Source: a virus
IMG/VR virus record: IMGVR_UViG_3300038393_002936
DNA length: 64,000 bases
Direction: 5' to 3' (one strand)
Below, piece by piece: positions 33,994 through 59,938 of this stretch (positions are counted from its first letter, which is position 1; each line of letters begins with the position of its first letter). The position numbers were made by a program, and so were the translations under genes. The notes beneath the pieces are model-generated. The model saw nothing but the letters and a program-made list of their open reading frames with translations. It made no database searches and was not told the origin of the DNA.

Positions 33994-34072
33994 TTCCGGC
34001 AGTTGACTTCGTCAACGGGACCGGAGGTCCGGCAGGCGGCTTTGCCGCCGTCAACGAAGCTGACCAGGGAAG
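33994..34072. repeat. four-hairpin A element
   Basis: TTCCGGCA GTTGAC-TTC-GTCAAC G GGACC-GGA-GGTCC GGCA GGCGGC-TTT-GCCGCC GTCAAC-GAA-GCTGAC CAGGGAAG. Confidence 0.85.
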
Positions 34073-34122
34073 CCAGGGTTCTTCAGGGATGATTTCGATT
34101 GTGCCAACCGGAGTGAAACGAC

Positions 34123-34491
34123 GTGAGATTTGACCGCCTTACCCTCCTCGCCTCTTTCCTCGAATCCGACCATGTGCCAGAGGCACACTTCAATCTGGAG
34201 AACTGGGAGTGCGGCACCACCGCGTGTGCGTGCGGCTGGGCCGCTCGAATTCCCCAATTCAAGGAATCAGGATTCAAACTAAGCTCATTAGGTAATCCGC
34301 TCTTTGAAGAGTTTTCTCGCTGGGACGCCGTAATGAGGTTCTTTGAACTGAACAGGAGCCAGGCCGAGTACCTGTTTTTGGCCAGGTGTTACAAAGGTGG
34401 TTACCAAACCACCAAGTGGGAAGTCGCCGAGCGTATTCGGGATTTCGTGGAGGTGAACCGCCTGACACCATCACTTACTACTGAGTGCTGA
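34123..34491 (+). CDS. 'ERLLKLADFL' family protein 3
   Basis: DRLTLLASFL...CGTTACACGWAA...EVAERIR. Confidence 0.7.
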   Translation: MRFDRLTLLASFLESDHVPEAHFNLENWECGTTACACGWAARIPQFKESGFKLSSLGNPLFEEFSRWDAVMRFFELNRSQAEYLFLARCYKGGYQTTKWEVAERIRDFVEVNRLTPSLTTEC

Positions 34492-34517
34492 CGCACTCAA
34501 GCTATTCTAAGAAGACT

Positions 34518-34647
34518 TTCCGGCAGTCGTCTCCGACGACGGGAGCGAAGCTCCCACAGTCGGCTTTGCCGACAGGACCGGAGGTCCGGCAGGAGAGGGA
34601 GAATGGGGCGAACATCCAATCCCCCTTATTAACCTTCTCTGCCGGAA
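34518..34647. repeat. full-length composite element (4 hairpins-A-B'-A')
   Basis: aligns with the reverse complement of 55401-55482 with compensatory stem changes. Confidence 0.85.
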
Positions 34648-34702
34648 CTACGTTCTCGCCAGCTCCGCTGACTGCTTGATTGACTACTTATTGGAGAAGT
34701 TT

Positions 34703-35665
34703 ATGTCTTACACGATGACCGCTGCCGACCTGTTCGCCGGACTAGGCGGAAATACAGAAGGAGCGGCCCAGGCTGGGGTTCACGTAGTGGTCGCAGCTAA
34801 TCACCTGCCCCATGTTGTTGAGACCCACGCGAGGAATCATCCCGAGACCTCGCACTATACACAAGACCTTCAACAGGCCAACTTCGGCACCTGGCCCGAT
34901 TTCGACCTGCTTCTCGCCAGTCCCTGCTGTCAAGGTTTCAGCAACGCGAGGGGCAAGGATAAGCCCCAGCACGACGTGAGCCGGTCGACGGCATGGGCCG
35001 TCATCTCGGCGGCCGAGGCGAAAAAGCCCAAATTCTTGATGGTGGAGAACGTGCTGGGCTTCCGGCGGTGGACACTGTTCCCGCAATGGAAATCGTGCCT
35101 GGAAAACTTGGGGTACGTCCTACACGAGAACGTCCTGGACGCGGCCGACTTCGGGGTCCCCCAGGAGCGAGAGCGGCTGTTCGTAACCGGCGTCCACCGG
35201 TCCGTGTCCGACTGCCCGGCGGTGGTCGCCCGCCCGGGGCTTAACCGAGTGCCGGCCTCGGCTATCATCGACTGGGAGTTCGACCGAAGGAGCCTAGTCA
35301 ACAAGCCAGGACGGGCCGAAGCCACCCTTCAGCGAATCGCCAACGGTCGCCAGCAATTCGGCTCGCGGTTTCTTGCCCCTTTCTACGGGAGCGGGTCGGG
35401 GACAACCGGTCGCAGCCTGGACCGCCCGGTGGGGACGATTACACGGAAGGACAGGTGGATGCTGGTCGACAGCGACCGTTGTCGCATGCTCCAACTCCAC
35501 GAGAATCGGCGGGCGATGGGATTTCGGGACGACTACCTTCTGCCCGACGACCCGAAAACGGCCCTGGCCATGCTCGGGAACGCGACCTGTCCACCGGTCG
35601 TCCGCCAAGTGGTTCAGACTTTTCAAAATTACGCGGGAGCGACCACTGAAAGGAGTGCCGCATGA
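34703..35665 (+). CDS. C5 cytosine DNA methyltransferase
   Basis: DLFAGLGG (motif I), SPCCQGFS (IV), ENV (VI), PQERER (VIII), MLGNA (X). Confidence 0.9.
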   Translation: MSYTMTAADLFAGLGGNTEGAAQAGVHVVVAANHLPHVVETHARNHPETSHYTQDLQQANFGTWPDFDLLLASPCCQGFSNARGKDKPQHDVSRSTAWAVISAAEAKKPKFLMVENVLGFRRWTLFPQWKSCLENLGYVLHENVLDAADFGVPQERERLFVTGVHRSVSDCPAVVARPGLNRVPASAIIDWEFDRRSLVNKPGRAEATLQRIANGRQQFGSRFLAPFYGSGSGTTGRSLDRPVGTITRKDRWMLVDSDRCRMLQLHENRRAMGFRDDYLLPDDPKTALAMLGNATCPPVVRQVVQTFQNYAGATTERSAA

Positions 35666-35934
35666 CGAGCACATGGCAGGTCCAGACCATCGCCACCTTC
35701 GACCACAAGTACCTAATTGTGAACTTCCCTGCCGGAATCGGCGAACGCGAGTTGAACGCCCAGAAGGCTGTCGCCGAGCAAGCCCCGGTTCTCCTCCGGA
35801 GTGTTCGGGAATTGCTTACCGCTGGTCATGTCACCGTCCCTGGAGGGAATACGTTGGTGGCGGTTGACCGGGCCAAGTTCGAGCAACTCCAAAAGGTAGT
35901 CGAGTCTATCGACCCTATTCCGGCAGGGAAGTGA
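35662..35934 (+). CDS. hypothetical protein (contains two motif A copies)
   Basis: ATGA coupling; FPAG and IPAGK are encoded by motif A. Confidence 0.55.
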   Translation: MTSTWQVQTIATFDHKYLIVNFPAGIGERELNAQKAVAEQAPVLLRSVRELLTAGHVTVPGGNTLVAVDRAKFEQLQKVVESIDPIPAGK

Positions 35935-36132
35935 GGTAGTCCGACGACTCACCTGTGAGCACAGCGAACCATCCAAACTCCCCCATTAACGGGAGCGAGC
36001 AACAATGAGGCACCGTAACCAGCCCGTATTACAAATTGACGTTTCATAACACCCCGTAATGGGCTTTGCCTTCTAAGCTCGGTCACACTGTCCGAGTTCA
36101 GGCACTATAACTTTTCCGCGAGGGACGAAGTC

Positions 36133-36447
36133 ATGAGAATTGTGGTTTACGACTATTATGGCCAGGCCGTTTACGTGGACGGCAAGTTAGCCGGATATTA
36201 CGGACACAACAACGACTTTGATGTCGCAGAACTTTGTGGCCAACTCGGCATCTCTTTCGAGAAACGCTCGGTGCGGTGGGAAGACTGGCCGGGCCTAAAA
36301 GAAAATATGCGAGCGGTATACGACCCGCCCGTAAAGCTGGAGACCGTCGAGCAGCATTTTGCGGAACTGAACCGACGGCGGAAAGTCGACCGTCTGGAAC
36401 AACTCAAAATGGAAGTGGCCAAACTGGAACAGGAACTGAGTCACTAA
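36133..36447 (+). CDS. hypothetical protein
   Basis: ATG after GAC-GAA-GTC hairpin. Confidence 0.6.
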   Translation: MRIVVYDYYGQAVYVDGKLAGYYGHNNDFDVAELCGQLGISFEKRSVRWEDWPGLKENMRAVYDPPVKLETVEQHFAELNRRRKVDRLEQLKMEVAKLEQELSH

Positions 36448-36459
36448 AAAGGAGCAATT

Positions 36460-36630
36460 ATGAGTTTCCCCCTCGCACCGGAAGACCTCATCGACATGAT
36501 TTACGAACGAGTCCGCGGCATGAACACCGCGGAACTGGTCGCGTTTTGGCGAAAGAATTTTGACGATGTCGATGTGCGGGAGTCTCAGACTGGGACTGGG
36601 TGTGTCGCGGTGTTTGAAATCGCCGTCTGA
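36460..36630 (+). CDS. small hypothetical protein (56 aa, not in ORF track)
   Basis: AAGGAG RBS; MSFPLAPEDLIDMIYERVRGM. Confidence 0.5.
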   Translation: MSFPLAPEDLIDMIYERVRGMNTAELVAFWRKNFDDVDVRESQTGTGCVAVFEIAV

Positions 36631-36640
36631 GGAGGTGCCC

Positions 36641-36865
36641 GTGACCACCTTACTCCGAGACTACAAGGAAATCGACGCCCACCACGAAGTTTATTGTCGC
36701 CAGCGGGCCCAAATTGAGCTCCTGAACATCCTGCTCGAAGCGGAGCGGAACACGCCGGGTCACCGGATGAACCGCACGAACCGGCTCTGGCGACTCCGGG
36801 AAATTATCGAGCGGTATCCCGAGTTCGAATATTTAGCCGAAGGAGTTTTAGGTGACAAAACGTGA
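36641..36865 (+). CDS. hypothetical protein
   Basis: GGAGGT RBS, GTG start. Confidence 0.55.
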   Translation: MTTLLRDYKEIDAHHEVYCRQRAQIELLNILLEAERNTPGHRMNRTNRLWRLREIIERYPEFEYLAEGVLGDKT

Positions 36866-37232
36866 ATATTTTGACCTACTGGTGCAGACCTCGGCGGCCG
36901 GCAAGTTTCCAGCGGGAGACCTTGCGGGATGTTATTACCGCGTCCCGGAAGGTGTGACTAGTTGTGGCGACCGCTGTGCGGTTGGGGTGCTGATTCCGGA
37001 CGAGGTTTATTGCCAATCGTTTGAAGAAGCCGGGCCGGTTAATTCCCTTTTTGAGACCTATTCTGACCTGGAGCAATTTATCCCCGAAGGTCTAACCACT
37101 GAAGACCTGCGGCGGATTCAAGTTCGCCACGACCGACACAGTTCGCGGCCGTGGAATCACGACAGATTTGTGCAGGAACTGCTCGCGTTGGACTGTTCCC
37201 GAGAGTTCGACTCGGTGCGCAATAACCCGTAG
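36852..37232 (+). CDS. 'CxYR...CAVG' family protein 3
   Basis: EYFDLLVQTS..GKFP...GCYYR...RCAVGVLIP. Confidence 0.7.
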   Translation: MTKREYFDLLVQTSAAGKFPAGDLAGCYYRVPEGVTSCGDRCAVGVLIPDEVYCQSFEEAGPVNSLFETYSDLEQFIPEGLTTEDLRRIQVRHDRHSSRPWNHDRFVQELLALDCSREFDSVRNNP

Positions 37233-37497
37233 ACCCGAAGGTATGTTGCTTGAGGTGTTTTACTACTCCTCAGGAGTAGCTCTTCCTCTGGCAAAAGGTG
37301 ATTGAGGTAGTCGGCAATGCGAGATGTTGACGCCTACTCCCTCTTCGACTGCCGGAGTAATACCGAGGTGAAAGGCCAATTTTCGATGCGGGCTCGCGTG
37401 AAAAATGCAGTGGTTTTTCTTAAGTCGTTGCGTAGCAAAGACAAGAAAAAGTGTCGATTTTTCCGACACATCAAAAATACTTGGGAGACCGTGCAAA

Positions 37498-37917
37498 ATG
37501 CACGATAAACTGACTCGCCAGGCCTATTTCGACCTGCTCGTCAAGACCAGTGCTGAGGGAGGCTTCCCGTCATGGGGCCTTGTTGACCCCGACTGCGGCG
37601 ATGGGTGCCTTTATAGGGGTCCCGATGGTCGCCAGTGTGCAGTGGGACTCCTGGTACCCGACGAGCTTTACGCTGACTACATGGAAGATGTCAGGGCGGA
37701 CCAACTATTCGAAGAGAATCCGGCTTTGCGACAGGTGATTCCCGAAGGGCTGACGGCTGGTGACCTGAGCGGAATCCAGAATGTCCACGACGCTCTCGCG
37801 GGTCGGGTGTCGCACTATGGCGGGATATGGCCGCACGAGGAATTCGTGGCGAAGTTGTCAGGACTCGACTGTTTTCGTGGTTTGACTGTCTCTGCCAGTA
37901 GTTTTTGTATCAGTTAA
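37498..37917 (+). CDS. 'CxYR...CAVG' family protein 4
   Basis: AYFDLLVKTS...GCLYRGPDGRQCAVGLLVP. Confidence 0.7.
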   Translation: MHDKLTRQAYFDLLVKTSAEGGFPSWGLVDPDCGDGCLYRGPDGRQCAVGLLVPDELYADYMEDVRADQLFEENPALRQVIPEGLTAGDLSGIQNVHDALAGRVSHYGGIWPHEEFVAKLSGLDCFRGLTVSASSFCIS

Positions 37918-37923
37918 GGAGTA

Positions 37924-38124: not shown

Positions 38125-38138
38125 CCTGTGGAGCACCC

Positions 38139-38486: not shown

Positions 38487-38507
38487 GCATGTGCCTTCGA
38501 CACCATT

Positions 38508-38550: not shown

Positions 38551-40368
38551 ATGTGCATGACCGCAACTTATGACCCGGCCGACAACAAGCTTCGCTTGTA
38601 CTCGGACAGCCGACTTCCCCGTCAAACCTACGAACAGGTCCGGGCCGCTGGCTTCATCTGGGCTGCCAAGCAAGAGTTGTTTGTAGCTCCGGCCTGGACA
38701 CCTGAGCGAGAGGACTTGTTGCTGGAGCTGTGCGGGGAAATCGGGGACGAGGACACTTCGCTCGTTGAGCGAGCCGAAGAGCGAGCCGAAAGATTTGAAG
38801 AGTACAGTGAGAAGCGAGAAAACGAGGCCGAACGGGCTCACACAGCGGTCGAGCAGCTAGTGGACGGGATTCCGCTCGGCCAGCCGATTTTGGTCGGGCA
38901 TCACTCGGAGCGACGAGCCCGCAAGGACAAGGAGAAGATTGAGGCCGGGCTTCGCAAGGCGGTCAACCTATGGCGGACATCGCAATACTGGGAGGAACGA
39001 GCCCGTGGAGCACTGCGGCACGCCAAGTACAAGGAATTGCCGGCCGTCCGATACCGGCGAATCAAGGGGCTGGAGGCCGACAAGCGGAAGCAGGAGCGAG
39101 TCCTGGCGGACTCTGAAAAATCGACGAAGTCGTGGTTGGCGGAAGGTCTGGAACTGACGCCTGAGCGGGCGTTAGCTATCGCCAACTATGACCATATCTC
39201 GCGGTGCTTTCCGCTCGCCGAATATCCGAGGGAGTCGCCTGCCTCTCTGTACGAGGGCCAAATGTCCCTTTGGTCAGCTCTCGAAGACCAAATTATTACG
39301 CCCGACCAGGCCCGGGACATTGCCGTGAAGGCTCACGCGGCGACGGCTGTGAGGGCTCGGCGGTGGCTGGAGCACATCGAAAACCGGCTGCGGTACGAAC
39401 GGGCGATGTTGGGAGAACAAGGTGGGATTGTGGCGAACAAGAGCAGGCCCGAGGTCGGGGGCGGGTGCAAGTGCTGGGCTTCTCCCCGCGGCGGCTGGTC
39501 CTTCGTCAAGAAAGTGAACAAGGTGTCGGTGACGGTCGAGGACAACTGGGGAAACGGCGGCAAAAACTTTACGCGGACTATCCCCTTTGACAAGCTCACG
39601 GCCCTGATGAGCAAAGAAGAGGTCGAGACGAAGAGGGCCACGGGGGAATTGGTGGTAACGGAGGACGGGCGAGGTTACTTCGTGTCGTCTGCGACGACAG
39701 TCGGCAAAGCTGACGAGGACGAGGCCTCGCCAGTTGGCGGGAACGGAATTCCGGCAGGAGAAGGGTTAATAGGGGGGATTGGAAGTTTGCCACACTTCCC
39801 TACTCCTCTGCCGGAAAAGAACAAGTTCGAGGTCGCCGCAGAGGCCCTGCGAAACGGGGTCCAAACCGTCTCCGCCCCAAACCTGTTCCCGACCCCGCCC
39901 GACATCGCCCGGCAACTCGTGGGACTGGCGGACATCAGCGACGGGATGAGCGTGCTCGAACCCTCGGCCGGCACCGGAAACCTGGCCGACGCCGTCATGC
40001 AGCACAGTAAGCCGGGGTCGCTCTGCCTGGTCGAGCTGAACAGCCAGCTGTGTGCTTTGCTGGCGAGCAAGGGCTACTCGGTGGTCCAGGGCGATTTTTT
40101 GGAGCAAAACGGCGATATCGGTCAATTCGACCGAGTCGTGATGAACCCGCCTTTTGACCACGGTCTGGACATCAAGCACGTCAGGCATGCCCTGACGAAG
40201 CTGAAGCCGGGCGGTCGACTGGTCTCGGTTATGGCGAACGGACCCCGACAGCGTGAGGCTTTCGAACCCGTCGCCACGACCTGGGTCGACCTGCCGCCGG
40301 ACTCGTTCAAACAGCAGGGGACGAGCGTGAACACGGCCATCGTCGTGCTGGACGCTTCGGCGGCTTGA
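38551..40368 (+). CDS. DUF3560 domain fused to N6-adenine-type SAM methyltransferase
   Basis: TATYDPADNKLRLY, GQPILVGHHSE (DUF3560); FPTP, LEPSAGTG, NPPF (amino-MTase). Confidence 0.85.
   Translation: MCMTATYDPADNKLRLYSDSRLPRQTYEQVRAAGFIWAAKQELFVAPAWTPEREDLLLELCGEIGDEDTSLVERAEERAERFEEYSEKRENEAERAHTAVEQLVDGIPLGQPILVGHHSERRARKDKEKIEAGLRKAVNLWRTSQYWEERARGALRHAKYKELPAVRYRRIKGLEADKRKQERVLADSEKSTKSWLAEGLELTPERALAIANYDHISRCFPLAEYPRESPASLYEGQMSLWSALEDQIITPDQARDIAVKAHAATAVRARRWLEHIENRLRYERAMLGEQGGIVANKSRPEVGGGCKCWASPRGGWSFVKKVNKVSVTVEDNWGNGGKNFTRTIPFDKLTALMSKEEVETKRATGELVVTEDGRGYFVSSATTVGKADEDEASPVGGNGIPAGEGLIGGIGSLPHFPTPLPEKNKFEVAAEALRNGVQTVSAPNLFPTPPDIARQLVGLADISDGMSVLEPSAGTGNLADAVMQHSKPGSLCLVELNSQLCALLASKGYSVVQGDFLEQNGDIGQFDRVVMNPPFDHGLDIKHVRHALTKLKPGGRLVSVMANGPRQREAFEPVATTWVDLPPDSFKQQGTSVNTAIVVLDASAA
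39684..39816. repeat. composite element inserted in frame in the DUF3560-MTase linker
   Basis: GTCGTC-TGC-GACGAC, GTCGGC-AAA-GCTGAC, TTCCGGCAGGAGAAGGG, TTAATAGGGGGGATTGGAAG, CCTCTGCCGGAA. Confidence 0.85.
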
Positions 40369-40602
40369 CTTCGTCAAGTGGAGCAGGTCGGCTCCGCCGA
40401 CGTAAGCTCCACTCACCAGGAAAAGAGGATGGCCATGCTAGACAAGCTGCTGAACTGGTTAAGGCGACTCCTTGGGCTGGAGCTAATTTATTGTCGGTCG
40501 TGTGGGTCTCGGCCGTCGTCTTGGAATCACCCAGAAGACGACTGTCCAGAAGATTGCTGGTCTGCGTACTACGGACTCCGAGACTCATTCTAATGAAGGC
40601 TG

Positions 40603-40666
40603 TTCCGGCAGGGAAGTGGGCATGGGTCGTCCAAGCAATCCCCCCTATTGACCCTCTTCTGCCGGA
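40603..40666. repeat. A-B'-A' element
   Basis: TTCCGGCAGGGAAG...CCAAGCAATCCCCCCTATTGA...CTTCTGCCGGA. Confidence 0.8.
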
Positions 40667-40764
40667 CCTTCGCTCTTGCCAATATCCCCCTTTGCACCAT
40701 CTCAAGTAACGACTCGCTGGCGAAAGCCTCGCGTAGCGAGTGACTAATTTAATGAGGAGTTTCC

Positions 40765-41529
40765 ATGCACCTGACTTTTGGTCGCGGCAACTCGAAATTA
40801 GACCCCTCAATATACACGTTCAGCTTGCCGGCTGGCCACACTTGTCCCGGGGCCTCACTTTGTTTGACAAAGTCGAACCGGGCAACCGGTACGATTCAGG
40901 ACGGGGACAAAAGTGACCCACGCAGTTTTCGGTGTTATGCGGCGACGATGGAAGCGAGGTACAGGAGTGTTCGGGAAAGTCGCTGGAGTAACCTTCGGTT
41001 ACTCAGGAAGGCAAAAACAGAATCGAGAATGAGCCGACTTATTCTCACTTCCCTGCCGGAAAAGGCGGCTCTCGTTAGAGTCCACGATAGCGGCGATTTT
41101 TTCTCCGAGGTATACTTAAAAGCATGGCTGGCGGTCGCCCGAGCCCGTCCTCAGACTCGGTTTTATTGGTACTCAAAGAGCATCGAGTTCTGGGTTCGGC
41201 ACCTGGAGGAACTCGGGACCGGGCACGAGCCAGGCCGGGTGGCGAACGTGGTGCCCACGGCGAGTTTGGGTGGTCGGTGTGACGAGCTTGCTCGTCAGCA
41301 CGGGTTGAGAACTGCTCAGGTGGTTTTCAGCGAAGACGAAGCCGAGAATCTTGGACTCATAATCGACCATAATGACAGCCTCGCCATGCGACACGGACCC
41401 GACTTCGCCCTCCTGCTGCACGCCACGCAGCCGGCCGGGACGTCCGCGGCGGCGGCACACCGGGAGCTGAAGGCGAAAGGTTGGACGGGATACGCCAAGG
41501 AGCGAAGAGTGCCACTGGCCTTGGCCTAG
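40765..41529 (+). CDS. phage Gp88-like protein (radical-SAM-like Cys motif)
   Basis: GNSKL, FSLPAGHTCPGASLC, CYA, RVHDSGDF, YWYSK. Confidence 0.75.
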   Translation: MHLTFGRGNSKLDPSIYTFSLPAGHTCPGASLCLTKSNRATGTIQDGDKSDPRSFRCYAATMEARYRSVRESRWSNLRLLRKAKTESRMSRLILTSLPEKAALVRVHDSGDFFSEVYLKAWLAVARARPQTRFYWYSKSIEFWVRHLEELGTGHEPGRVANVVPTASLGGRCDELARQHGLRTAQVVFSEDEAENLGLIIDHNDSLAMRHGPDFALLLHATQPAGTSAAAAHRELKAKGWTGYAKERRVPLALA

Positions 41530-41642
41530 TGGACTCCGCCCATGTCGGCGAAGCCGACTTTCCGAAAAGTCGCCGGGCTCCTCTTGCGGGGAGCCCACTT
41601 CATTTAATAGTGTAGTTAACAGCCACGACGAAAGACCTAGTC

Positions 41643-42983: not shown

Positions 42984-43180
42984 ATTTTCCCTACCCCCGG
43001 ATTTGCCGCCATGCGGTCGCAAGCAACCTTCTGTCAGAACTCGAAGCGAGAGGCTGGAAGTGTCCGCCTGAATTGGAGGAGGCGGTCGTCCGATGTCAGG
43101 ATGATGACGCAATCGCCATAATCGACAGGCTTGTTGGCGAAGCCGACGGGACCGGAGGTCCGGCAGGAGAGGTTAAGTAG
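42923..43180 (+). CDS. hypothetical protein (C-terminus overlaps repeat)
   Basis: AGGAGG RBS; ends GEADGTGGPAGEVK encoded by the hairpin-A element. Confidence 0.55.
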   Translation: MELDKPITIQDVLSLVHGLLNFPYPRICRHAVASNLLSELEARGWKCPPELEEAVVRCQDDDAIAIIDRLVGEADGTGGPAGEVK

Positions 43181-47846: not shown

Positions 47847-47879
47847 AGTAGATAGTCGGTTTTACCGACAGAAGCGTAA

Positions 47880-47977
47880 TTCCGGCAGGGAAGGGACACA
47901 GGGGTGATTGGCGGGTGGAGTTTCAGCGAGCGAAGCGGACCATGCAATCCCCCCTATTGGCCCCTACCCTGCCGGAA
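47880..47977. repeat. A-B'-A' element
   Basis: TTCCGGCAGGGAAGGG...GAGCGAAGCG...GCAATCCCCCCTATTG...CCCTGCCGGAA. Confidence 0.8.
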
Positions 47978-48773: not shown

Positions 48774-49157
48774 ATGTCTGAGATTAACCCCTGCACGCTT
48801 TGGGCGTTTCTTGAGAAGTTTTACCAAAGCGATGAAAAAGACCTGACATCTTTACTTGTTGCCTGTGATTATCTGGGAGAACATGGCGATTCTCGGGGTG
48901 AGAACCTTCGTCGTCGCATCAAGCGGCAGGCTGCTCTGAAGGCAAAAGTAGCCGTTAAGTATGGGGACGGATACTCACAACGAACAAGCTGTGGGCTACA
49001 CAATTATGTACGTGACATGTTTCCCGAATGCAAAACCTCATACAGCCTCTTAATGAGAGAAAAGGTCGACAGAACAATGAGGCGACTGTGGGGCCTTTTA
49101 CCGAGTCGCCAGGAACAGTCGCACGACACCGGAGAAGTGTCCTGGAGCTCGAAATAA
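48774..49157 (+). CDS. degenerate TIGR02996-like protein
   Basis: DLTSLLVACDYLGEHGDSRGENLR resembles D.PRLVYADWLEE.G..RAEFIR. Confidence 0.55.
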   Translation: MSEINPCTLWAFLEKFYQSDEKDLTSLLVACDYLGEHGDSRGENLRRRIKRQAALKAKVAVKYGDGYSQRTSCGLHNYVRDMFPECKTSYSLLMREKVDRTMRRLWGLLPSRQEQSHDTGEVSWSSK

Positions 49158-49261
49158 TCACGCACGACCTTGTGCGAGCCCAGTATTACGCTAAAATATG
49201 CTCTATTGAACCGAATGAGGCAAGAACGCAGGCCCTGGCGGGGCCGACTTCAGGAGGCCCC

Positions 49262-49993
49262 ATGAATCAAGAAAACGCCTTGCTCCGAGCTATTTGCGAG
49301 AATATCGACGACGACACGCCTCGGCTTGTTTTCGCCGACTACCTCGAAGAACGTGGCGAAGAAGCCTGGGCCCAGTTCATCCGAAGCCACATTGCCGCCA
49401 CAAGAGCTGGCGTAGCCGAGTTCGGAGACGAATCGAACGACCGCTCGTTGAAACTCGAGTTTGTGCCACCCAAAACCGTGGTGGTCAAGGTTGTTCCTCC
49501 GGACGGCCCCGATAAGACTGGTTCAGACTCGAGCGTGCCGCTTTTTCTTCAGTGGGCTAAGCGACTTGGGCTTCCTGACTGCCTCGAATATTGCAAGCTG
49601 AGTCGATGGGACCGCGGATTTCCTGCTGTTTATAGTATCGAATCCGCAGTTGGCTTCTCCCGGTCTGTTAAGACATCACTATTTTCTCGAGTGCCCATCC
49701 GACATTTTAAGGTCGAGTCCAGACAACCACAAGAAATGTCGGCATATGCCGGCTCGCATTCTTGGTTTGAGTGGCGCAAGCAAATAAAAGGCAACCGCGG
49801 GAGATATTTTCTTCCAGCAAGTATTTTTGAGATACTCGACAATCCAGCCCAAAACATAAGCTTAGTGCATTTTTTCTCCAGAAAAGAAGCGGACGAAGCC
49901 GCGTGGACTGCGTATGCGAGGCGAGGGCGGGTTTTGAATTTGGGTCATACTGGGGAGAACCGGGTTGCCGGGTGCTTAGTCACGGAGCGTTAA
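49262..49993 (+). CDS. TIGR02996 domain protein
   Basis: ALLRAICENIDDDTPRLVFADYLEERGEEAWAQFIR...WDRGFP. Confidence 0.85.
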   Translation: MNQENALLRAICENIDDDTPRLVFADYLEERGEEAWAQFIRSHIAATRAGVAEFGDESNDRSLKLEFVPPKTVVVKVVPPDGPDKTGSDSSVPLFLQWAKRLGLPDCLEYCKLSRWDRGFPAVYSIESAVGFSRSVKTSLFSRVPIRHFKVESRQPQEMSAYAGSHSWFEWRKQIKGNRGRYFLPASIFEILDNPAQNISLVHFFSRKEADEAAWTAYARRGRVLNLGHTGENRVAGCLVTER

Positions 49994-50237
49994 TAGAGGG
50001 GATTGGATGGACTCCGTCCATCGGAGGCGGCTGTGAACCCTGACGAAATCCGAGCCGAATATGCCCGTATCGAAGCCGAGGAAGAGGCCGCCGAACGCGA
50101 AACTCAAACTTGTCTCTCTCTGGCTTCGAATGCAGAAATTGCGGGAGTAGTGTTCACACTCGCGGGCGGAACCTTGTGCGGACGAGTGCTCTGACTACCG
50201 CCAGGCTTTTGACTAACATGCCTTCCGGAGAAGAAGC

Positions 50238-50444
50238 GTGGAAAGGATGAAATGGATACGGGACGCCGACAGCAGCGACCAGCGAAGTGCGTGCGGCCGG
50301 TTCCTCATCCGCCGAACCTGCACGAATCCCAAATGGTGGGGTTACTGGAGTTTGACCGACACCACAACCGGAGAAGAATTTCCTTGTAGGACAGAGTCTT
50401 CAGCTAAGACCGCGGCCCGCAATAGGCGAAATGCAACTGGCTGA
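50238..50444 (+). CDS. hypothetical protein
   Basis: GGAG RBS. Confidence 0.5.
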   Translation: MERMKWIRDADSSDQRSACGRFLIRRTCTNPKWWGYWSLTDTTTGEEFPCRTESSAKTAARNRRNATG

Positions 50445-50475
50445 TGTTCTGAGTCCTTTAAATCGTCAAAGTCTA

Positions 50476-50629
50476 TTCCGGCAGGAGAGGGACAGGGTGG
50501 TGTCGGAAGAAGGCTCGGCCCACCCAAGCAATCCCCCCTATTAAGAGTGAGTGAAGCGAATTTACCCCTCTCTAACCCTTACTTCCCTGCCGGACCTTCG
50601 GTCCCGTCGGCGGACGCCGACTGCCGGAA
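50476..50629. repeat. composite A-B'-A'-hairpins element
   Basis: TTCCGGCAGGAGAGGG...CAATCCCCCCTATTAA...CTTCCCTGCC GGACC-TTC-GGTCC...ACTGCCGGAA. Confidence 0.85.
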
Positions 50630-50662
50630 ATAAACTCTGGCGACAGCACGAGCGGAGCGAGT

Positions 50663-51448
50663 ATGTCTGAGGAATCTTTCTTACAGGCCATCTACCGCAA
50701 TCCCCGAGACGACATGCCGAGACTGGTCTACGCGGATTGGCTGGACGAGAACAGCAACAGTGACCGGGCCGAATTCATCCGTCTCCAATTCGAGATTGCA
50801 GCCCAACGAGCGGGCCTCGTCGCTGCTTCAGAAGAGAATGACCGGCGACAGGATTGGTTAGAGCAGCGAGAAAGGGAACTTTTAGAGAAGAACTGGCAAC
50901 AATGGCTGCGACCTCTTCATAGTTGGATACTCTATCGAAATTGCGATACAAACATACTCACTTATGAAAACATAACAGGGAACCGTGCCGTTGTACGTTT
51001 TCGCAAGGGCTTCCCCGGCGAAGTGAATTTAAACACAGACACTTTTCTCGGTATTCCCTGCCTAGCCCATGCTAGGTCCGGCGAGAACTGCATTAACTGT
51101 GGCGGAACAGGTGCCACAAAGGGGGCCGCCCTCACTCTCCTACCGGAACTGCCCACTGTTACCAAAATAAGCTTAGCTGACAAGCGGCCATCCGAGTGGT
51201 CCGAAGACGCAGGCTCCTCATCGTTCGACGGACGAACTTTTTACTCGTGGTTTGGCCCTGAATCTATCCTTGGGCTGGACCAAGAACATACCAGGATTCC
51301 TGAACCTTTATTTCAGCTGATGATGCGAGCGGGGCACAAACAGGGGAATTTTGGTCACACCCTGCGGTTTGAGACGGCGGCAGATGCCCAAGAGGCTTTG
51401 TCCGAGGCCTGCCTGGGCTACGCCCAGAGTTTAAAGGAGAAGTTATGA
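50663..51448 (+). CDS. TIGR02996 domain protein with CxxC insert
   Basis: FLQAIYRNPRDDMPRLVYADWLDE...RAEFIRLQ...FRKGFP...CINCGGTG. Confidence 0.85.
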   Translation: MSEESFLQAIYRNPRDDMPRLVYADWLDENSNSDRAEFIRLQFEIAAQRAGLVAASEENDRRQDWLEQRERELLEKNWQQWLRPLHSWILYRNCDTNILTYENITGNRAVVRFRKGFPGEVNLNTDTFLGIPCLAHARSGENCINCGGTGATKGAALTLLPELPTVTKISLADKRPSEWSEDAGSSSFDGRTFYSWFGPESILGLDQEHTRIPEPLFQLMMRAGHKQGNFGHTLRFETAADAQEALSEACLGYAQSLKEKL

Positions 51449-52575
51449 ACGACGAGACAGCCTTGTTAAAAGCCATCACGGAACATCCCAACGAAGACAC
51501 CCCGCGACTCGTTTATGCTGACTATCTTTAAGAACAGGGTAAACCCGACAGGGCCGAGTTTATTCGAGTTCAGTGTGAGTTAGCGAAGCTTGCACCGCCG
51601 AGGGTTATCCGGGTCGGGTCTTGTTACAGCTTTCAGTTCGAAGCCGAGCTGGAGCTAGGAACTCGTGTCGACCAAGCAGACCTATCTTGGCGAATCGGCG
51701 AGGTGTTCGACCTCAAACAAATCACATCGCGAATTTCGGCTACCTGGCACCATGATATGATTCTGACCAGCATTTCACCTCGGTCTGGTGGAGGGGCCGA
51801 GCTTCTTTTTCGCCAGGGAAAGGTGTGGGGGCACCGCTTGCGGTACGAGTATCTTCTTAATCGTCAACACCACCTCCTGTGTTTCAGCGAAACCGGCCCG
51901 TCGCCCTGGTATTCGTGGGCTTTCGTACCGCACAAGGACGAAGAGGGAAGCCCTTCGGGACCCGGTAATCGGGGCGGAATGACGCTCCACCCGGCTCACT
52001 GCGACCAGTTTCCATACATCGAGGTGTCGCCACGGATTCGCCAGACGTTTCGACGGGGCTTCGTGGACGAGGTCGAGTTGCCCATCGGGGCCTTCGCCGG
52101 GCATTGCCCGGCGTGTGAAGACGGCTGGTTTATCAACGAGACACCGAATGCAGGAGACGGTGAAGACGGTGTTGTTGGGGGCAGCCGGATGAGGTGCGAG
52201 GTGTGCTACGGGGCTGGTCAGCGAGAAGGCTACGCCGGAGCTCTGTTCCGAGAGCATCCAGCGATTCGGAAGGTCATCTTCAGGAGCAGAAATCCCGTCC
52301 TACCGAGGGCATTAGGCCGCCAGGTCCGGCTGCCAGAGTGGCGGGCTCGGTCGAGCGATTTGGGTCTTGATTTTATCGACACTGTTCCGTTCGGCTTGTT
52401 TAAGCTACTTGAAAATGGCGAGTATTCCGAAGCGTTCCGAGGACCTGGACTCAAGGAGCCTGTAATTTCTGTTAGTCGAACCTACCAATCGACCGAAGAC
52501 GCAGTCGCGGACCTATCTGACGCTGCCATCACCTACGGCAGGAATGAAGCTCTAAAGATGGCGGTGACAGTATGA
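51445..52575 (+). pseudogene. TIGR02996 domain protein with in-frame TAA at 51529-51531
   Basis: MNDETALLKAITEHPNEDTPRLVYADYL*EQGKPDRAEFIRVQ continues in frame into ORF 51703..52575 (FRRGFV, CPAC, CEVCYGAG). Confidence 0.8.
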
Positions 52576-53486
52576 CGGAAAGCGTAGCTTTCAAGCGGGC
52601 GATTCTTGAAAACCCGGCCGAAGACACACCCCGACTCGTTTACGCCGATTGGCTCGACGAACACGCCGGTTTTATAAAGTGCCCGTACTGCTATGGGGAT
52701 GGCATCCTGGGACCGATTGCCGGGATTCCGAAGGGTGAATGTGAAGACTGTAAGGGTACGGGAGAAGTGTCCGACAAAAGTCGGGAGCGAGCTAGTTTCA
52801 TTCGGGCCCAGGTCCAGGCCGCATGCGGGTTCGAGCTAGAAAGTATGCGGCTCTGGAACTTGCTCCACCACTCCGCAGAATGGTTCCCCGATGTGTGCAA
52901 GTCGCTCAATCTTGGCGTTAACCACTGGGGCGTGATGCACGATAACACGGTGCATTTTGAGCACAAGAACACCGTGAACGAGTTCTTTGTTCGCCGGGGC
53001 TTCGTGGATGAAATTCGTGTGCCACTGTCGTGGCTGATAGGAAGGGACTGCGAGCGGTGTCAGGGCCGGGGTCACGAGCTAGTTCCAGTATACGAGCCAG
53101 TCCGGGAGACAACCTGCGGAGGATGTGGAGGTCGGCTGGTCACCCGCGATGACACCCCTGCTGGTCGTGGGGCGAAGTGGTGTTCGTCGTGCTGGGGGAT
53201 GACTTCTCCGCGGTACGCTGGGCACGAACAAGCCGTTGACTGCCTGTGGTGCGTCAGCGGCCGAGTCGGCGGCTGTCAGTCAGTCCTCGAAGCGAATCCC
53301 GTTAAGAAAATCGTGGTCGGGGACCTAAGAATCGAAATTGAGCCACCGGGTCCTGACTACGGTTGGCAAGCGTATTTTTATAGAGCAGAAGAAGAATCAT
53401 ATCATTATTTTATCGGCGGTGGCCTGAGTCGATGCGAAATGCTGGCTGAACTTTTTGAATGCGTCTCGTCAGTGCTCACACCTTGA
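52572..53486 (+). CDS. TIGR02996 domain protein with multiple Zn-finger inserts
   Basis: AFKRAILENPAEDTPRLVYADWLDE; CPYCYGDG, CEDCKGTG, CERCQGRG; RRGFV. Confidence 0.85.
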   Translation: MTESVAFKRAILENPAEDTPRLVYADWLDEHAGFIKCPYCYGDGILGPIAGIPKGECEDCKGTGEVSDKSRERASFIRAQVQAACGFELESMRLWNLLHHSAEWFPDVCKSLNLGVNHWGVMHDNTVHFEHKNTVNEFFVRRGFVDEIRVPLSWLIGRDCERCQGRGHELVPVYEPVRETTCGGCGGRLVTRDDTPAGRGAKWCSSCWGMTSPRYAGHEQAVDCLWCVSGRVGGCQSVLEANPVKKIVVGDLRIEIEPPGPDYGWQAYFYRAEEESYHYFIGGGLSRCEMLAELFECVSSVLTP

Positions 53487-53495: not shown

Positions 53496-53897
53496 ATGAA
53501 CCGCATAAGTGTCTATTGGAATTTGCACACTCGAAATTACTCCTTGAAGGACTCCGGCAGTCGCCTTCGGCGACCGGAACGTAGTTCCGGCAGAGGAGGA
53601 AGGGTATTTGCCCACCAGGACATCGTCTTGCTCCGCGATTGCACGTTCAAAGTCTGGGAAGGAGGCCGCCAGCGGGTCTTGCGAGAAGGCCAGAAAATGG
53701 TCCACGCATTCGTCTGCGGCACACCGGTTAAGCCGCAGGATTTACCAACGCACCTTGGGTGCCCAGAGCGAGTTCGCTATAATCCTTACGAAACGAAGAC
53801 GTTCGTTCGGGCCGATTCCGGCGAACCTATTTTTGAGGCTGCTTGGGTGCTACTGAAGAAGGAGGGAGACAAGCCCGTGGTTTTGGCTTATCCATGA
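53496..53897 (+). CDS. conserved phage hypothetical protein carrying an in-frame repeat insertion
   Basis: VYWNLH...GRV.AH...GRQRVLRE..KMVHAFV.G...YNPY pattern; repeat at 53553-53604. Confidence 0.7.
   Translation: MNRISVYWNLHTRNYSLKDSGSRLRRPERSSGRGGRVFAHQDIVLLRDCTFKVWEGGRQRVLREGQKMVHAFVCGTPVKPQDLPTHLGCPERVRYNPYETKTFVRADSGEPIFEAAWVLLKKEGDKPVVLAYP
53553..53604. repeat. two-hairpin A element inside CDS
   Basis: TCCGGCA GTCGCC-TTC-GGCGAC C GGAAC-GTA-GTTCC GGCAGAGG. Confidence 0.8.
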
Positions 53898-55298: not shown

Positions 55299-55300
55299 TA

Positions 55301-55482
55301 TTCCGGCAGGAGAGGGGACAGTAGGGCGGGAAAGGTGAACTCGTGGGCGGGTAGCCGCATCACCCGTGAACGAAGTGAACCATCCAATCCCACCTATTAA
55401 CCTCTCCTGCCGGAACTTCGTTCCCGTCGGTTTCGCCGACTGTGGAAAGCTTCGCTTCCGTTGACGGAGTCAACTGCCGGAA
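55301..55482. repeat. longest composite element (A-B'-A'-4 hairpins)
   Basis: reverse complement aligns with 34518-34600 and with 14830-14867 (B + TTCACTTCGTTCACGGG). Confidence 0.85.
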
Positions 55483-55561
55483 CTTCTTTCAGCATTCTCC
55501 AGACTCCGGGATAATTGCATAGCCGCCAGGGTGGTCCGGAACTACCACAGGAATTACTACC

Positions 55562-55813: not shown

Positions 55814-56313
55814 ACGCCCCTGAGCTAAGCTCCCGCCAGCTCGAACTCCTGCTTTTTTACATCAAGCACATCGAAGAACACGGCTACCAGCCGACTTACC
55901 GCGAGGCTGCGACCCATTTTGGAATTACGTCCCGAGCCATTCAGGACCGTCTCTTACAACTGGCCCGCAAGGGTTACTGTGAAATGCCCGTGAAGCGAGG
56001 TGACCGCTGCGTGCGGTTCCCCCACCTGCGCTTTGAACATCACTTCGTGTCCGAACCCACCCCTCCCGAAATAGTGGACGAACCCCATCCCCAGACCGGC
56101 GAAATCATCCGACTTGCCCTTCAGACCTTCTTCTTCAATAATGATAACGAACCTGCCAAGGTCGCCACCATGGCTGAGACCATCGGGGCTGCAATTCCGA
56201 AGGTCTACGCGGCTCTGAACCACGATAAGGAAGGGATTTTTCGAAAGGTCAAAGGGCCAGGGAGGGCCATCTTGTGGCAACTGAGGACCGGTGCCAAAGA
56301 TGCTCGAGTCTGA
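55810..56313 (+). CDS. LexA-type winged-HTH regulator lacking peptidase domain (candidate repressor)
   Basis: LSSRQLELLLFYIKHIEEHGYQPTYREAATHFGITSRAIQDRLLQLARKGY; second wHTH-like C-terminal domain. Confidence 0.75.
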   Translation: MNAPELSSRQLELLLFYIKHIEEHGYQPTYREAATHFGITSRAIQDRLLQLARKGYCEMPVKRGDRCVRFPHLRFEHHFVSEPTPPEIVDEPHPQTGEIIRLALQTFFFNNDNEPAKVATMAETIGAAIPKVYAALNHDKEGIFRKVKGPGRAILWQLRTGAKDARV

Positions 56314-56353
56314 TTTTCACAATTCGGAAACAGAGAGTGGGGAGGGTGACGAG

Positions 56354-56926
56354 ATGGCGAGGGGACGTAAACCGGGCGGCGGACACCACAATTCAAGGGC
56401 CGAGCCCCCAAAAGAAGAAGTCGAAGAGGAAAATCAGGAAGAGGGGCAGGAAACTCACGGGAGAATAGCTCCGGCCGCAGCGGCTACCACGGCGAGCGAA
56501 GCGGAGCCGATTAACAAAAGTCGGATTGTCGAGGAGATTGTCCGGAGTATCGGCGACGTGGCCGAGGTGAACGCCAAGAGGGTCGGCGAGCTCATCCTTC
56601 GAGACCACGGCGAAGAGGTGTTCGCCCAGTTTTCGCCGACGATATTAAGCAATTACACCTCGAACGCCAAAAAGAAGGTGTACGGCGGCAGTACCGGTGG
56701 CGGAGGAGATGGTGGAGGCCATACGAGGGTCGCCAGGGCCTCCACCGCAGGAGGTGAACCGTCCTTCTCAGACCTCATGAGGGCTAAGCAGGTGTCCGAA
56801 GAATTTGGCGGCTCCCTGCGGCTGGTCAAGAGTCTGGTGGCCCTCGCTCGCCTCACGGGCGACACGGGCTTTGTGGGCGAACTGGCGGTCGAACTGGCCA
56901 GTTCTCTGGAGCAGTCTTCGGAGTGA
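56354..56926 (+). CDS. planctomycete-type putative DNA-binding protein
   Basis: INKSRIVEE...SNAKKK...SDLMRAKQVSEEFGG pattern recalled from small planctomycete proteins. Confidence 0.6.
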   Translation: MARGRKPGGGHHNSRAEPPKEEVEEENQEEGQETHGRIAPAAAATTASEAEPINKSRIVEEIVRSIGDVAEVNAKRVGELILRDHGEEVFAQFSPTILSNYTSNAKKKVYGGSTGGGGDGGGHTRVARASTAGGEPSFSDLMRAKQVSEEFGGSLRLVKSLVALARLTGDTGFVGELAVELASSLEQSSE

Positions 56927-57035
56927 ATAAAAGTGGTGGGGCAGAGGGACCGACTTGCTGCCTCTGCCCCACTGTGCGTCAGCTCCGTTCGGGACAGAGA
57001 GAGCACCCGCCAGATACTGCCCTCCCCTCCTTCGT

Positions 57036-57377
57036 CTACTCCGGAAGCCGCTCCAGAATCACCCGCCCCACCTCGTTCGTCCGCGGGTCGAGCAGGACCA
57101 GGCCCTCTTCGTCGCGGCCGGCATACACTCCTGCCGGAAGAGCCAGCAGAAGCCTGTCGAGCATGCCCGAGGCCGGTTCCAGCGACAGAAATCGCGGCAG
57201 GTCCGATTTCGGCATTTCCTTGAGCTGGACGCCGGCCAGGCGGAAGGCCTTGGCCATCGCGTCAACTCGGTTCGGGCTCACCCGCACCCCCTGCCTGCGG
57301 AGCAGGACGGATGCGTGCGTGACGGACGCGGCCTCTTCCCAGCACAAGGCGAACAGCCGGACACTCAACCTCGTCAT
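57036..57377 (-). CDS. putative HTH protein, related to 61861..62481
   Basis: FALCWEEAASV...AKAFRLAGVQLKEMP. Confidence 0.6.
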   Translation of the reverse strand: MTRLSVRLFALCWEEAASVTHASVLLRRQGVRVSPNRVDAMAKAFRLAGVQLKEMPKSDLPRFLSLEPASGMLDRLLLALPAGVYAGRDEEGLVLLDPRTNEVGRVILERLPE

Positions 57378-57905
57378 GGCGACCTTTCACGGAGATATTT
57401 CGGACGGTTGCTCCATTCTGGTCCGACCCCGACAATTGGTAAAGGTGCGGCAATTTTGCAGAAGTCCAGATAGGCAACTGACTTTTACCGTTTCTCACAA
57501 TCTTTTCATGAAAATTTATCGGACATGACTATTGAGGTTTTGCCACAACTATGCTGGTCCAACACACTTCGTCTGACTTTCTGCTGGTGACTTGCTCGAG
57601 CTTTTACCCGCCGAGACCGCAATCCCCTCTTTTTCAGGAATTTTTTCCTGACTCTGTTCGCCGACAGAATTGGTCCAAGAAACCAGAGCACATTATCATA
57701 ATTATTTATAAGTCAATATTTACAACGAAGCCTTGGTGCTCGGATTCACGCCGCACCCGGCACTCTCTTGGTTGGGGCTGTCGCCCGGAAACCTCGGCTT
57801 TCCGACGCGCTTAAAACGCGCTTATATTACGTCATGAACCATTCTCTTATCAGAACAGCCATCATGGCTTTCCGCAAGTCCAAGTTCCAAAGGAACTTGC
57901 CACAG

Positions 57906-57949
57906 TGGGTCCGGCGGGATTCGAACCCGCAACCAAGGGATTATGAGTC
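57906..57949 (-). mobile_element. attP core: 3' half of a tRNA with CAU anticodon (Ile2/Met-like)
   Basis: minus strand GACTCATAATCCCTTGGTTGCGGGTTCGAATCCCGCCGGACCCA (anticodon loop, T-arm, acceptor 3' strand); no 5' half; about 140 bp from the integrase stop. Confidence 0.8.
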
Positions 57950-58088
57950 GTGCGTTTCACGCACCGCTATAGGCAAACGCCAGTACAGGTCACCGCCGTA
58001 AGTTCAGCCATCAGCAACTATTGCTCTCCCGCGCTCTTTGCCGCCGGCTACCACGCAGCTCGGAGTCGCGAAAAAATAATCGCGCTGT

Positions 58089-59258
58089 TCAGTCGGCCCT
58101 GGACTCCTTGGCGAGTTGCTCGAAGAGCAGGTCTGCGTCGTACGCTTGCTTGGCGTCGAGATAGTATTGCTGAGCGGTCTGTGAAGTGGTCCCGATGGCA
58201 TTCGCCGCCGCATCGACACTGCCCGCCATCCGGGTGGCCAAGGTGATAGCCCGCCGCTTCAGCGAATGGGGCGTAAGACGGGGCTGACCAGGGCGTTCAT
58301 CATTAAACTCTCTGAATATGTTGGAAACGGCCCAAAAGAGCGTTTTAGGGTCGAATTCGTCCTTGTTCTTGGTCCCTGGGCGGAATTTCTTGGCGTCCTC
58401 TGCGTATCGCTCCCACAGCCAGGTCGGGCCGGCGATGGTCTGGAGGCTTGCGAACAAATTAGGGGACAGCTTGATGACTCGGTCGCGACGTTCTTTTTTC
58501 ACCGAAGCGGGGAAGAACAGGCGGCCATCTCGAAGGTCGCTCGTTTTGAGAGAGCAAAGGTCCATCGTCCGACATCCGGCCAGGGCTTTCGTAATGACCC
58601 AAAGCCGCACGAGTGTCCAATCAGGATACCGCTTCTGGAGCCAATCCAGAAATTTGTCGTACTCGTCGGTAGTCGGGACGTGTTTTCGGACCTTGTCGAC
58701 CAGCGGCGGAGAGATGCCGGACCACGGGTTGCTTTTAACGTAGCCCAACTCGTCAAAGTGCTTGTTCCAGAGGGCAGATAGTTTTCGGAGGTAGGTCGCA
58801 GTTGTCGTGGAGCTTCGTTTGTAAACAGTGGCGTCTTTGGCCTTACTCCGCGTAAATCCGGTTGAGCCAAACAGGCGTTTAAATCGTTTGGCGTGTTCGA
58901 CCGTAACGTCAGCCGGCCCCCTCGTGCCTTTAATTGTATCCCGAAATACCCGAACGGTTTTTAAATAATCCTGGAGCGTCCCGGGCCTAATGTCGGTCGT
59001 TTTTTGAAGCTCTTGGACAACATCGTCCCACGAGACGACCACCTCGCCTTCGGGTGTCTTCTCGTAGGCCTTGTGTATCATGCGAACCGCCACCTCGTGG
59101 GCTTCGGTGATGGTTCGACAGCCCGTGCTCAGTCGCCGGAACTTGTCCAGTCCCGGAGGTTGGAACCGTACCTGGTAAACCCCCCGTTGGTCCTGAAGAC
59201 CGTAACTGACCAAAAGTCCATTTGGCAGAAGGGTGCTGAATTCGGGCCGCTTTGGCAC
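58089..59258 (-). CDS. int: tyrosine recombinase/integrase
   Basis: GCRTMDL (R), K, TPHSLKR (HxxR), QQYY (Y); SAM-like core-binding domain; adjacent tRNA-derived att. Confidence 0.88.
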   Translation of the reverse strand: MPKRPEFSTLLPNGLLVSYGLQDQRGVYQVRFQPPGLDKFRRLSTGCRTITEAHEVAVRMIHKAYEKTPEGEVVVSWDDVVQELQKTTDIRPGTLQDYLKTVRVFRDTIKGTRGPADVTVEHAKRFKRLFGSTGFTRSKAKDATVYKRSSTTTATYLRKLSALWNKHFDELGYVKSNPWSGISPPLVDKVRKHVPTTDEYDKFLDWLQKRYPDWTLVRLWVITKALAGCRTMDLCSLKTSDLRDGRLFFPASVKKERRDRVIKLSPNLFASLQTIAGPTWLWERYAEDAKKFRPGTKNKDEFDPKTLFWAVSNIFREFNDERPGQPRLTPHSLKRRAITLATRMAGSVDAAANAIGTTSQTAQQYYLDAKQAYDADLLFEQLAKESRAD

Positions 59259-59378
59259 GGGAATCCTCCTTGCACAAAGAAGGGCTGTTCCCGTAATTTT
59301 ACGCCGAAGGGGTCGGCGGTGCTAGTTCGAGCGGCTCAAGGGGGAAGTGCGGTAGGTAGCGGAACCGAAGAGGCGAGA

Positions 59379-59423
59379 TTCCGGCAGGAAAGGGAGTATG
59401 TCCATACTGCTCTCCTGCCGGAA
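59379..59423. repeat. motif A inverted pair upstream of integrase
   Basis: ATTCCGGCAGGAAAG...CTCTCCTGCCGGAAT. Confidence 0.8.
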
Positions 59424-59821
59424 TATGGCACTAGACTGCACAGCTCGGCTCAGGTTCAGCGAGTATCCCTGCTTCTTGACCAGGGAATCGCTATTGCCAC
59501 CCTAATAAGCCCCTACGCCATCTCCACCTACACCTACACACCTCCCCGCGAGCGGTTCCTGTTTCGCGGCCTCAAGAAACCTCATTTCGAACCACCCTCT
59601 CGCGGGCGAGTGCCGCTTGTCTCTACAGTGGTGCTCAACGCCTCTTGGCGTCACTCGGACTCCGGCGGCTGCCTGGCCCAAGAAGCACTTCGCGAAAAAT
59701 TCAACTTTAAAGTTGAAATATCGCACCAAGCAATATCACAGCGGATGGCAACCGCTACATTTAACATAGTCTTTTTTAGTGTAGTCATCCGCAGAGGTCA
59801 AGGCTGCTTCGCAGTTTTTAG

Positions 59822-59938
59822 TCCGGCAGGGAAGTGGGTGTGCCCGCCCCCACCAGGGGAGTTTGCATGTTCGCCCGACCCCCCTGCCCTACTCTCCTGC
59901 CGGACCTCCGGTCCTGTCGGCTTCGCCGACTGCCGGAA
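59822..59938. repeat. composite A-A'-hairpins element
   Basis: TCCGGCAGGGAAG...CTCTCCTGCC GGACC-TCC-GGTCC T GTCGGC-TTC-GCCGAC TGCCGGAA. Confidence 0.85.

Follow-up and report, generated by a model that had tools for sequence, protein, structure and literature searches.

Paired mini-hairpins in a 64,000-nt stretch of viral DNA (IMG/VR record IMGVR_UViG_3300038393_002936, hereafter the window) are probably the two halves of a selfish, non-coding insertion element of 33 nt, moving most likely by homology-guided copying. The window is part of the 165,690-nt genome of an uncultured tailed phage from soil or rhizosphere, about half of which was covered by the window together with flanking loci, and it was compared with two or three sister haplotypes, which are mosaic and 85-100% identical to it. 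Since the 33-nt unit is present in one strain and missing from another at the same site, it appears to be a mobile element of minimal size and not a fixed replication or transcription signal.

Five orthologous sites differed between sister strains by whole units (+33, +33, +33, +66 and +33 nt), and the differences ran in both directions between strains. At the portal site the window is 33 nt longer than strain L009 between identical flanks, and the absence of the encoded 11 residues from the portals of two more distant outgroup phages, L013 and L014, marks this copy as a derived insertion. At 35919 the window is empty and strain L032 is longer by 33 nt, with the same flanks and a junction ambiguity of 8 nt; the junction ambiguities of the clean pairs were 4 and 8 nt. 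The array at 34002 is 33 nt longer in L032, the site (34020) being longer in the independent run X8 too, and L004 exceeds L005 by 66 nt. At 53560 the window exceeds L019 and L024 by 33 nt and the flanks differ as well. Flanks around the insert differed at two of the five pairs and were unchanged at three, and insertion is the presumed direction of change at the four non-portal sites. A preliminary description of this DNA had proposed gain and loss of 15-nt modules, which is not what the strains display: their differences are of 33 (or 66) nt, and the sole 15-nt difference falls within the unit at 59905. Single-hairpin modules outside units find their only support in two indels between strains, at 1048-1064 (16 nt) and 61149-61185 (19 nt), the latter being a duplicated hairpin with a flipped loop.

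The unit is composed of two abutting 15-nt hairpins, H1 and H2, followed by 3 nt, and about 40% of the hairpins are halves of such units. Abutting pairs of 15-mers with at least 11 of 12 pairs formed were found 10 times versus 0.13 in shuffled sequence, and a spacing of 15 nt was dominant. Aligned copies share 79% column identity, and a covariance model picked up 14 strong copies and several weak ones in the window (Table 1), with others past both its ends. The unit begins with G, ends with CA and occupies the CA^G step of a 13-mer, motif A (TCCGGCAG core plus GRRAG), which is present 70 times versus 4.3 expected, in coding and intergenic DNA and with a strand split of 27 + and 28 - in 15001-64000. 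Units of the common subtype regenerate the target core with the H2 3' arm plus the final three bases, so that an intact motif A follows the insert, open to another insertion; nesting of this kind gives arrays of two and three units (66 and 99 nt), which differ between strains by whole units. The rarer subtype B (6702, 34035 and 40387) repeats CAG or CA only. Motif A as a hairpin of its own was rejected, having only about 3 bp and no covariation. In L014, a relative at 67% identity, motif A is enriched (12 versus 1.8 expected) and the 21 kb seen contain no unit, suggesting that the target predates the element. At 62883 and 10431 motif A lies in coding DNA of one strain and is absent from the other, within a short patch of differences, as if written by conversion. 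Long palindromes, each made of two motif A copies in inverted orientation 30-40 nt apart, lie at 17901-17942, 24693-24731, 59380-59422 and 63456-63497, with more past the window.

All hairpins quoted in the preliminary description were located (34526, 34575, 55460 and 55412 on the - strand, 53560, 53574, 59916 and 39683), and the family reaches outside the 33994-59938 region it dealt with, to 6702, 28153, 29301, 31933 and beyond both window ends. Perfect triloop hairpins with a stem of at least 5 were counted in this region and in 60 trinucleotide-preserving shuffles. The C-GNA-G triloops numbered 13 versus 0.75 in shuffled sequence (maximum 3 in 60 shuffles) and the C-TNC-G triloops 15 versus 0.70 (maximum 4), giving 28 versus about 1.5 combined, while C-TTT/AAA-G triloops were found 4 times versus 0.26. 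The proposed bias in loop and closing pair is thereby borne out. That nearly all loops are GNA or TNC is true of the excess hairpins but not of all hairpins, 23 of 63 being background, as the other triloop hairpins are not enriched (23 versus 26.3). All 3-nt loops amounted to 55 versus 15.9 shuffled, and loops of 5-8 nt were at or near background. Perfect hairpins with 4-nt loops are about twofold enriched in 15001-64000 (29 versus 15), with no common loop sequence and few U-tails. The register present is that of DNA triloops, in line with the DNA-type structure previously assumed, and the RNA tetraloop register is absent; two cUUCGg strings considered as RNA tetraloops were rejected as out of stem register.

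Compensatory stem changes were confirmed on an alignment of 22 units, in which 89.8% of the cells are paired and two-sided changes occur at 8 of 12 pairs. There were 35 two-sided cells versus 11.6 in shuffled alignments (0/500) and at most 11 in slid controls, although the copies are kin and the 0/500 is hence no p-value. The selection on DNA structure that had been read from these changes is only partly upheld: the stems covary, but two-sided changes alone are no proof of selection because copying between copies and template switching, which builds stems and flips loops, also make them in one step (PMC8794818).

Two mismatches were counted in 7 copies with an intact 5' junction versus 22 in 8 copies with a decayed junction (p=0.006), and orthologous copies in different strains had 7 uncompensated stem changes versus a single compensated event; twice the same hairpin was broken differently in each strain. 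The sole compensated event swapped three bases at once, giving the hairpin found at 53574, and a compensated pair at 34563/34569 was excluded from the count since it stems from short contig ends and is probably another copy. As resident copies decay without compensation, the fold would be selected mainly for spreading. The pattern suggests that perfect, covarying stems belong to spreading variants and that resident copies rot, as expected of a selfish element and not of a signal needed at each locus.

The units are found in both orientations where almost all genes are on the + strand (p=0.65 for 11 units on + and 8 on - in this all-plus region), and the portal copy runs opposite to its gene, confirming that the hairpins are not tied to transcription direction. 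Loops had also been described as occurring on either strand; this is so for H1, which flips and has TNC, GNA or TTT/TCT loops, but the arrangement is not random, as all 17 window copies carry the GNA form of the H2 loop on the motif-A strand. With only GNA triloops forming the exonuclease-resistant DNA mini-hairpin (PMC13037366), this one-sidedness makes a strand-specific single-stranded DNA (ssDNA) intermediate likely, the folded single strand being the working form. In predicted DNA folds the two hairpins are stacked and the unit junctions drawn together.

The element would thus move at the DNA level via one single strand, the strand reading motif A, on which the stacked mini-hairpins would put the two unit junctions within 3 nt and resist exonucleases. 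An empty motif A would be filled by copying from an occupied one during replication or recombination, by strand annealing, template switch or gene conversion, with the folded insert looping out and the 13-mer supplying homology on both sides. Covariation would then reflect which variants spread, together with one-step copying of arms, and a length of 33 nt would allow survival inside genes. Homology-guided copying is a quite realistic possibility among the candidate routes and is favoured because the same 13 nt are found at each site, a hairpin swap resembles conversion, H2 is associated with its flank, and the flanks differ at two of five pairs. An H2 loop of GGA accompanied the GGAGA form of the 3' half-site in 4 of 5 cases versus 1 of 12 (post hoc, p=0.01), and again at a locus found later, which hints at co-transfer of the flank with the unit. 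A more far-reaching version is put forward tentatively and with some doubt: an enzyme-less 33-nt ssDNA dumbbell that homes into the phage's own 13-mer, rebuilds the target and keeps reading frames, as one of a wider class of GNA mini-hairpins spreading by fold alone.

Several points weigh against this explanation. The shared sequence of about 13 nt is short for annealing-driven conversion, and the unchanged flanks at three of five pairs fit clean enzymatic insertion equally. Polarity was shown for the portal site only, and the empty sites could be precise deletions between 3-8-nt repeats. No transposition event or intermediate was seen in the haplotypes compared, the phage genome was seen only by half, and 32 of the 53 strict hairpins lie outside units.

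An enzyme acting in trans is unlikely but credible in the form of an HUH/Y1 single-strand transposase (TnpA-REP or IS200/IS605 type), encoded by the host or by the unseen part of the phage, that would move the unit via a 33-nt ssDNA circle. Such an enzyme agrees with the single cut position. TnpA-REP recognises perfect stems with 3-nt loops on one strand and cleaves at CT or CA (PMC8266576), both dinucleotides are contained in the junction core CAG/CTG, and the tetranucleotide at the base of H1, GCAG/ACAG, is similar to the GTAG/GYAG foot of repetitive extragenic palindromes (REPs; PMC3733652). A Gemmataceae genome moreover encodes Y1 proteins, one of them (L139:1377-2065) lying between inverted, REP-like GAA/TTC triloop hairpins that are unrelated in sequence to the phage unit. 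However, neither a Y1 transposase (Y1_Tnp) nor a reverse transcriptase was found among about 115 proteins (Pfam) or in the precomputed families of the flanking loci, the unit was not found in 185,579 species genomes (exact pattern) or in the same Gemmataceae genome, and targeting of a 13-mer is not known for REPs. Genes for a tyrosine recombinase and for HNH/endonuclease VII-like proteins are present, the former as a candidate mobiliser only; the latter, free-standing at 11145-12350 and L010:8293-8922, are possible homing endonucleases or cruciform cutters. It is improbable that the recombinase acts on the units in the manner of an integron, with the folded unit in the role of attC and motif A in that of attI, in spite of the junction identity of 3-8 nt and of strain-specific gene cassettes bounded by motif-B repeats (see below). 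The protein matches no integron-integrase model and only weakly Xer-type ones. The attC sites have a GTT/AAC core, extrahelical bases and a long imperfect stem, whereas the units have neither this core nor extrahelical bases and their 6-bp stems leave no room for two binding sites.

The preliminary description took the hairpins for cis-acting signals kept by selection at each locus, such as N4-type ssDNA promoters, priming sites or cruciforms. The strong loop and closing-pair bias speaks for such signals, as does the use of mini-hairpins in phage G4 origins, ssiA and N4 promoters (PMC13037366), and weak selection could explain the ninefold enrichment of solo hairpins, those outside units (32 versus 3.6). 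Standing signals of this kind are nevertheless improbable for the units, which are dispensable at orthologous sites of sister strains, are found in either orientation to genes and also inside them, have no constant position relative to gene starts, and decay uncompensated once resident. A purely mutational origin, in which no unit moves and perfect inverted repeats are built on the spot when the polymerase switches templates at stable mini-hairpins, is very improbable as a full account. It is favoured by strain-specific solo hairpins arising without indels, often by changes in one arm, by mini-hairpin loops in 10 of 17 C-closed cases (about 15% expected, p=3e-5), and by GAA/TTC loop flips of the sort a documented mechanism produces (PMC8794818). 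It gives no account of one 33-nt family at about 20 distant loci in one motif A register, and divergence in solo hairpins is not above that of the flanks (0.18 versus 0.16); the shared 33-nt sequence refutes an in-place origin of the units. A role or intermediate at the RNA level (terminators, processing sites or reverse-transcribed copies) is hardly probable. For the Allomyces elements and the GC clusters of yeast, passage through RNA has been proposed (PMC2800124, PMC4478555), but here transcription direction is unrelated, the triloops are of DNA type with no RNA tetraloop register and no U-tails, Rfam gave no match, and the genome part seen has no reverse transcriptase.

The solo hairpins would be a second layer that forms in place, probably through template switches that perfect the stems around mini-hairpin loops. 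The 53 strict hairpins of the window comprise 21 in units and 32 solo, and the latter, often in coding DNA, are present in one strain and absent from the other without indels, an indication that they turn over in place. Template switching is a fairly likely explanation for them and a poor one for units; either it or weak selection accounts for the earlier impression that structure is conserved with sequence free. A signal of multi-base mutation inside solo hairpins was rejected, as there was no excess over flank divergence.

In the data scanned, no unit turned up beyond this phage lineage. Exact-pattern scans of viral, metagenome and species-genome collections for the unit, for motif B and for inverted A pairs gave chance matches or none, a diverged family being invisible to them. 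When 96 related loci were scanned around their capsid gene (1.37 Mb), the covariance model had no match and no abutting hairpins were seen; these loci are head modules only, a region for which the window shows a single unit in 15 kb. The pattern was likewise without a match in two complete relatives and in one Gemmataceae genome, cultured phages gave no match, and Rfam and ARAGORN scans of the window gave none. No report of such an element in phage was found in a literature of which coverage was partial.

Compared with known systems, the unit is filed as a variant of elements such as the double-hairpin elements (DHEs), GC clusters, SDRs and REPs, from each of which it differs in some features. 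The mitochondrial DHEs of Allomyces and Schizosaccharomyces (Paquin et al. 2000, after PMC10085805 and PMC2800124) are likewise short, GC-rich pairs of adjacent hairpins, non-coding, patchy among close relatives at orthologous sites, tolerated in genes and with no mobiliser identified. As far as these descriptions go, DHEs are organellar and in Allomyces lack a flanking duplication (PMC2800124), whereas the phage unit has 3-8-nt junction repeats, a fixed 33-nt size, one cut position in a 13-mer and strict DNA mini-hairpin loops. Nostoc SDR5, by the account in PMC4390886 (Elhai et al. 2008), inserts precisely into HIP1 and is thus also a very small repeat entering a highly iterated genome-wide word at one register; here the target is a non-palindromic 13-mer of one phage lineage, the unit has two perfect triloop hairpins, and one subtype regenerates the target and nests. 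Yeast mitochondrial GC42 clusters (PMC4478555) share palindromic structure, flanking repeats of 2-3 nt, rapid gain and loss, merging and shuffling of units and flank changes tied to presence, but their stems are conserved in sequence whereas those of the phage unit covary, and host and target differ. REP/BIME/REPIN sequences with TnpA-REP (PMC3733652, PMC8266576) resemble the unit in being small, strand-specific ssDNA hairpins with 3-nt loops, as H2 is, in forming arrays and in the CA/CT of the junction. The GCAG or ACAG overlapping the start of H1 recalls the REP foot, of which GYAG variants exist, but is here part of the target; also unlike REPs, the unit has no spacer between its hairpins, a defined target word, a phage location and no cognate transposase in about half of the genome. 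No tnpA-REP gene flanked by these repeats was found there or in one Gemmataceae genome, perhaps not that of the host. The PeSL cassettes of T4-type phages (PMC2839356) are similar in their dispersed stem-loops, variable region and gene shuffling (here at motifs A and B), but they are promoter-terminator cassettes oriented with genes, and the units lack orientation bias, U-tail and promoter-terminator character. The fixed, required and oriented hairpin of N4-type promoters or ssDNA origins is not matched by units that are dispensable, occur in both orientations and lie inside genes, and integron cassettes differ by the absence of an IntI model match and of attC traits in the unit alignment. The Lobosphaera LIMP repeat was rejected as an analogue with GNA loops, its loops being of 7 nt.

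Table 1. Element copies, target motif and candidate mobiliser gene in the window (ORF, open reading frame).
Feature	Position	Strand	Remarks
Motif A (target), 13-mer	251-63496 (first to last copy)	both	
Unit, subtype B	6702-6734	+	H1 6702-6716, H2 6717-6731; repeated CAG; in-frame 11-aa portal insert (gene on -)
Unit, decayed 3' end	28153-28185	-	at end of 228-aa ORF
Old unit	29301-29333	+	5' half-site lost, 8/11 pairs
Unit	31933-31965	+	11/11 pairs, 5' half-site partly decayed
Unit, probably chimera of two tandem units	34002-34034	+	L032 33 nt longer here
Unit, subtype B, 32 nt	34035-34066	+	inserted in motif A regenerated by preceding unit
Two tandem units, 66 nt, four hairpins	34526-34591	+	within single motif A
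Older unit	34640-34672	-	on inverted motif A of A-B-A' composite
Empty motif A	35919-35931	+	one 33-nt unit there in L032 (17716-17748)
Hairpin pair and decayed unit	39684-39756	+	in frame in linker of DUF3560-methyltransferase gene
Unit, subtype B	40387-40419	+	CAG at both sides, motif A decayed
Heavily decayed unit, tentative	40660-40692	-	H2 remnant only
Decayed unit	41526-41558	-	both junctions lost
Unit	43133-43165	+	5' half-site lost, 3' motif A intact
Old unit	47855-47887	+	H2 2/5 paired
Unit, 34 nt	50588-50621	-	H1 loop of 4 nt
Unit	53560-53592	+	11/11 pairs; empty in L019/L024
Two tandem units, 67 nt	55408-55474	-	
Unit	59898-59930	-	11/11 pairs; L019 version 15 nt shorter, diverged
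Tyrosine recombinase gene, candidate mobiliser only	58089-59258	-	

The window has its major capsid (2003-3037), portal (6196-8433) and terminase (8479-10698) genes all on the - strand, and also a long series of small + strand genes. TIGR02996 domains (Gemmata) in three window proteins and a capsid homologue in a Gemmataceae genome bin make a planctomycete host likely. The genes for these Gemmata repeat-companion domains are clustered at 49028-53486, and the one at 52572-53486 has extra Cys-rich segments in the window copy that the sister strain is without. GATC is absent from the whole window (159 expected) and GCGC occurs 43 times versus 247 expected, an avoidance pointing to host restriction systems. 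The terminase of L009 is of 1148 aa versus 739 aa in the window and bears an intein with a LAGLIDADG domain (L009:1444-4890). The linker of the DUF3560-methyltransferase is 49 aa long in the window versus 20-27 aa in 19 of 20 homologues and 37 in one; hairpins and an A-B-A' composite lie in frame in it (39684-39816), and the composite itself may be mobile. Motif B is a G-rich 17-20-mer with about 20 copies in both orientations. At the window position 23086-23106, sister strain L032 (3477-3711) has a strain-specific 71-aa gene between two direct B copies, and a comparable cassette swap between A-B-A' composites is found near a C5 methyltransferase (L032:15240-16130). Both swaps resemble PeSL-type shuffling.

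The movement of DHEs, GC clusters and SDRs has been an open question for more than 20 years, and the mechanism for such ultra-short elements is still called unresolved (PMC4478555, PMC10085805). The phage case offers a bacterial system with a defined 33-nt unit, a single cut position, a target, a strand and natural empty and filled alleles, by which the routes become testable. It also demonstrates that an essential portal protein can gain 11 residues through such an element, and that covariation among repeats of one family is no proof that they serve the host genome. If the more far-reaching version given above is true, the unit would be a minimal selfish replicator of a tailed phage, without a dedicated enzyme.

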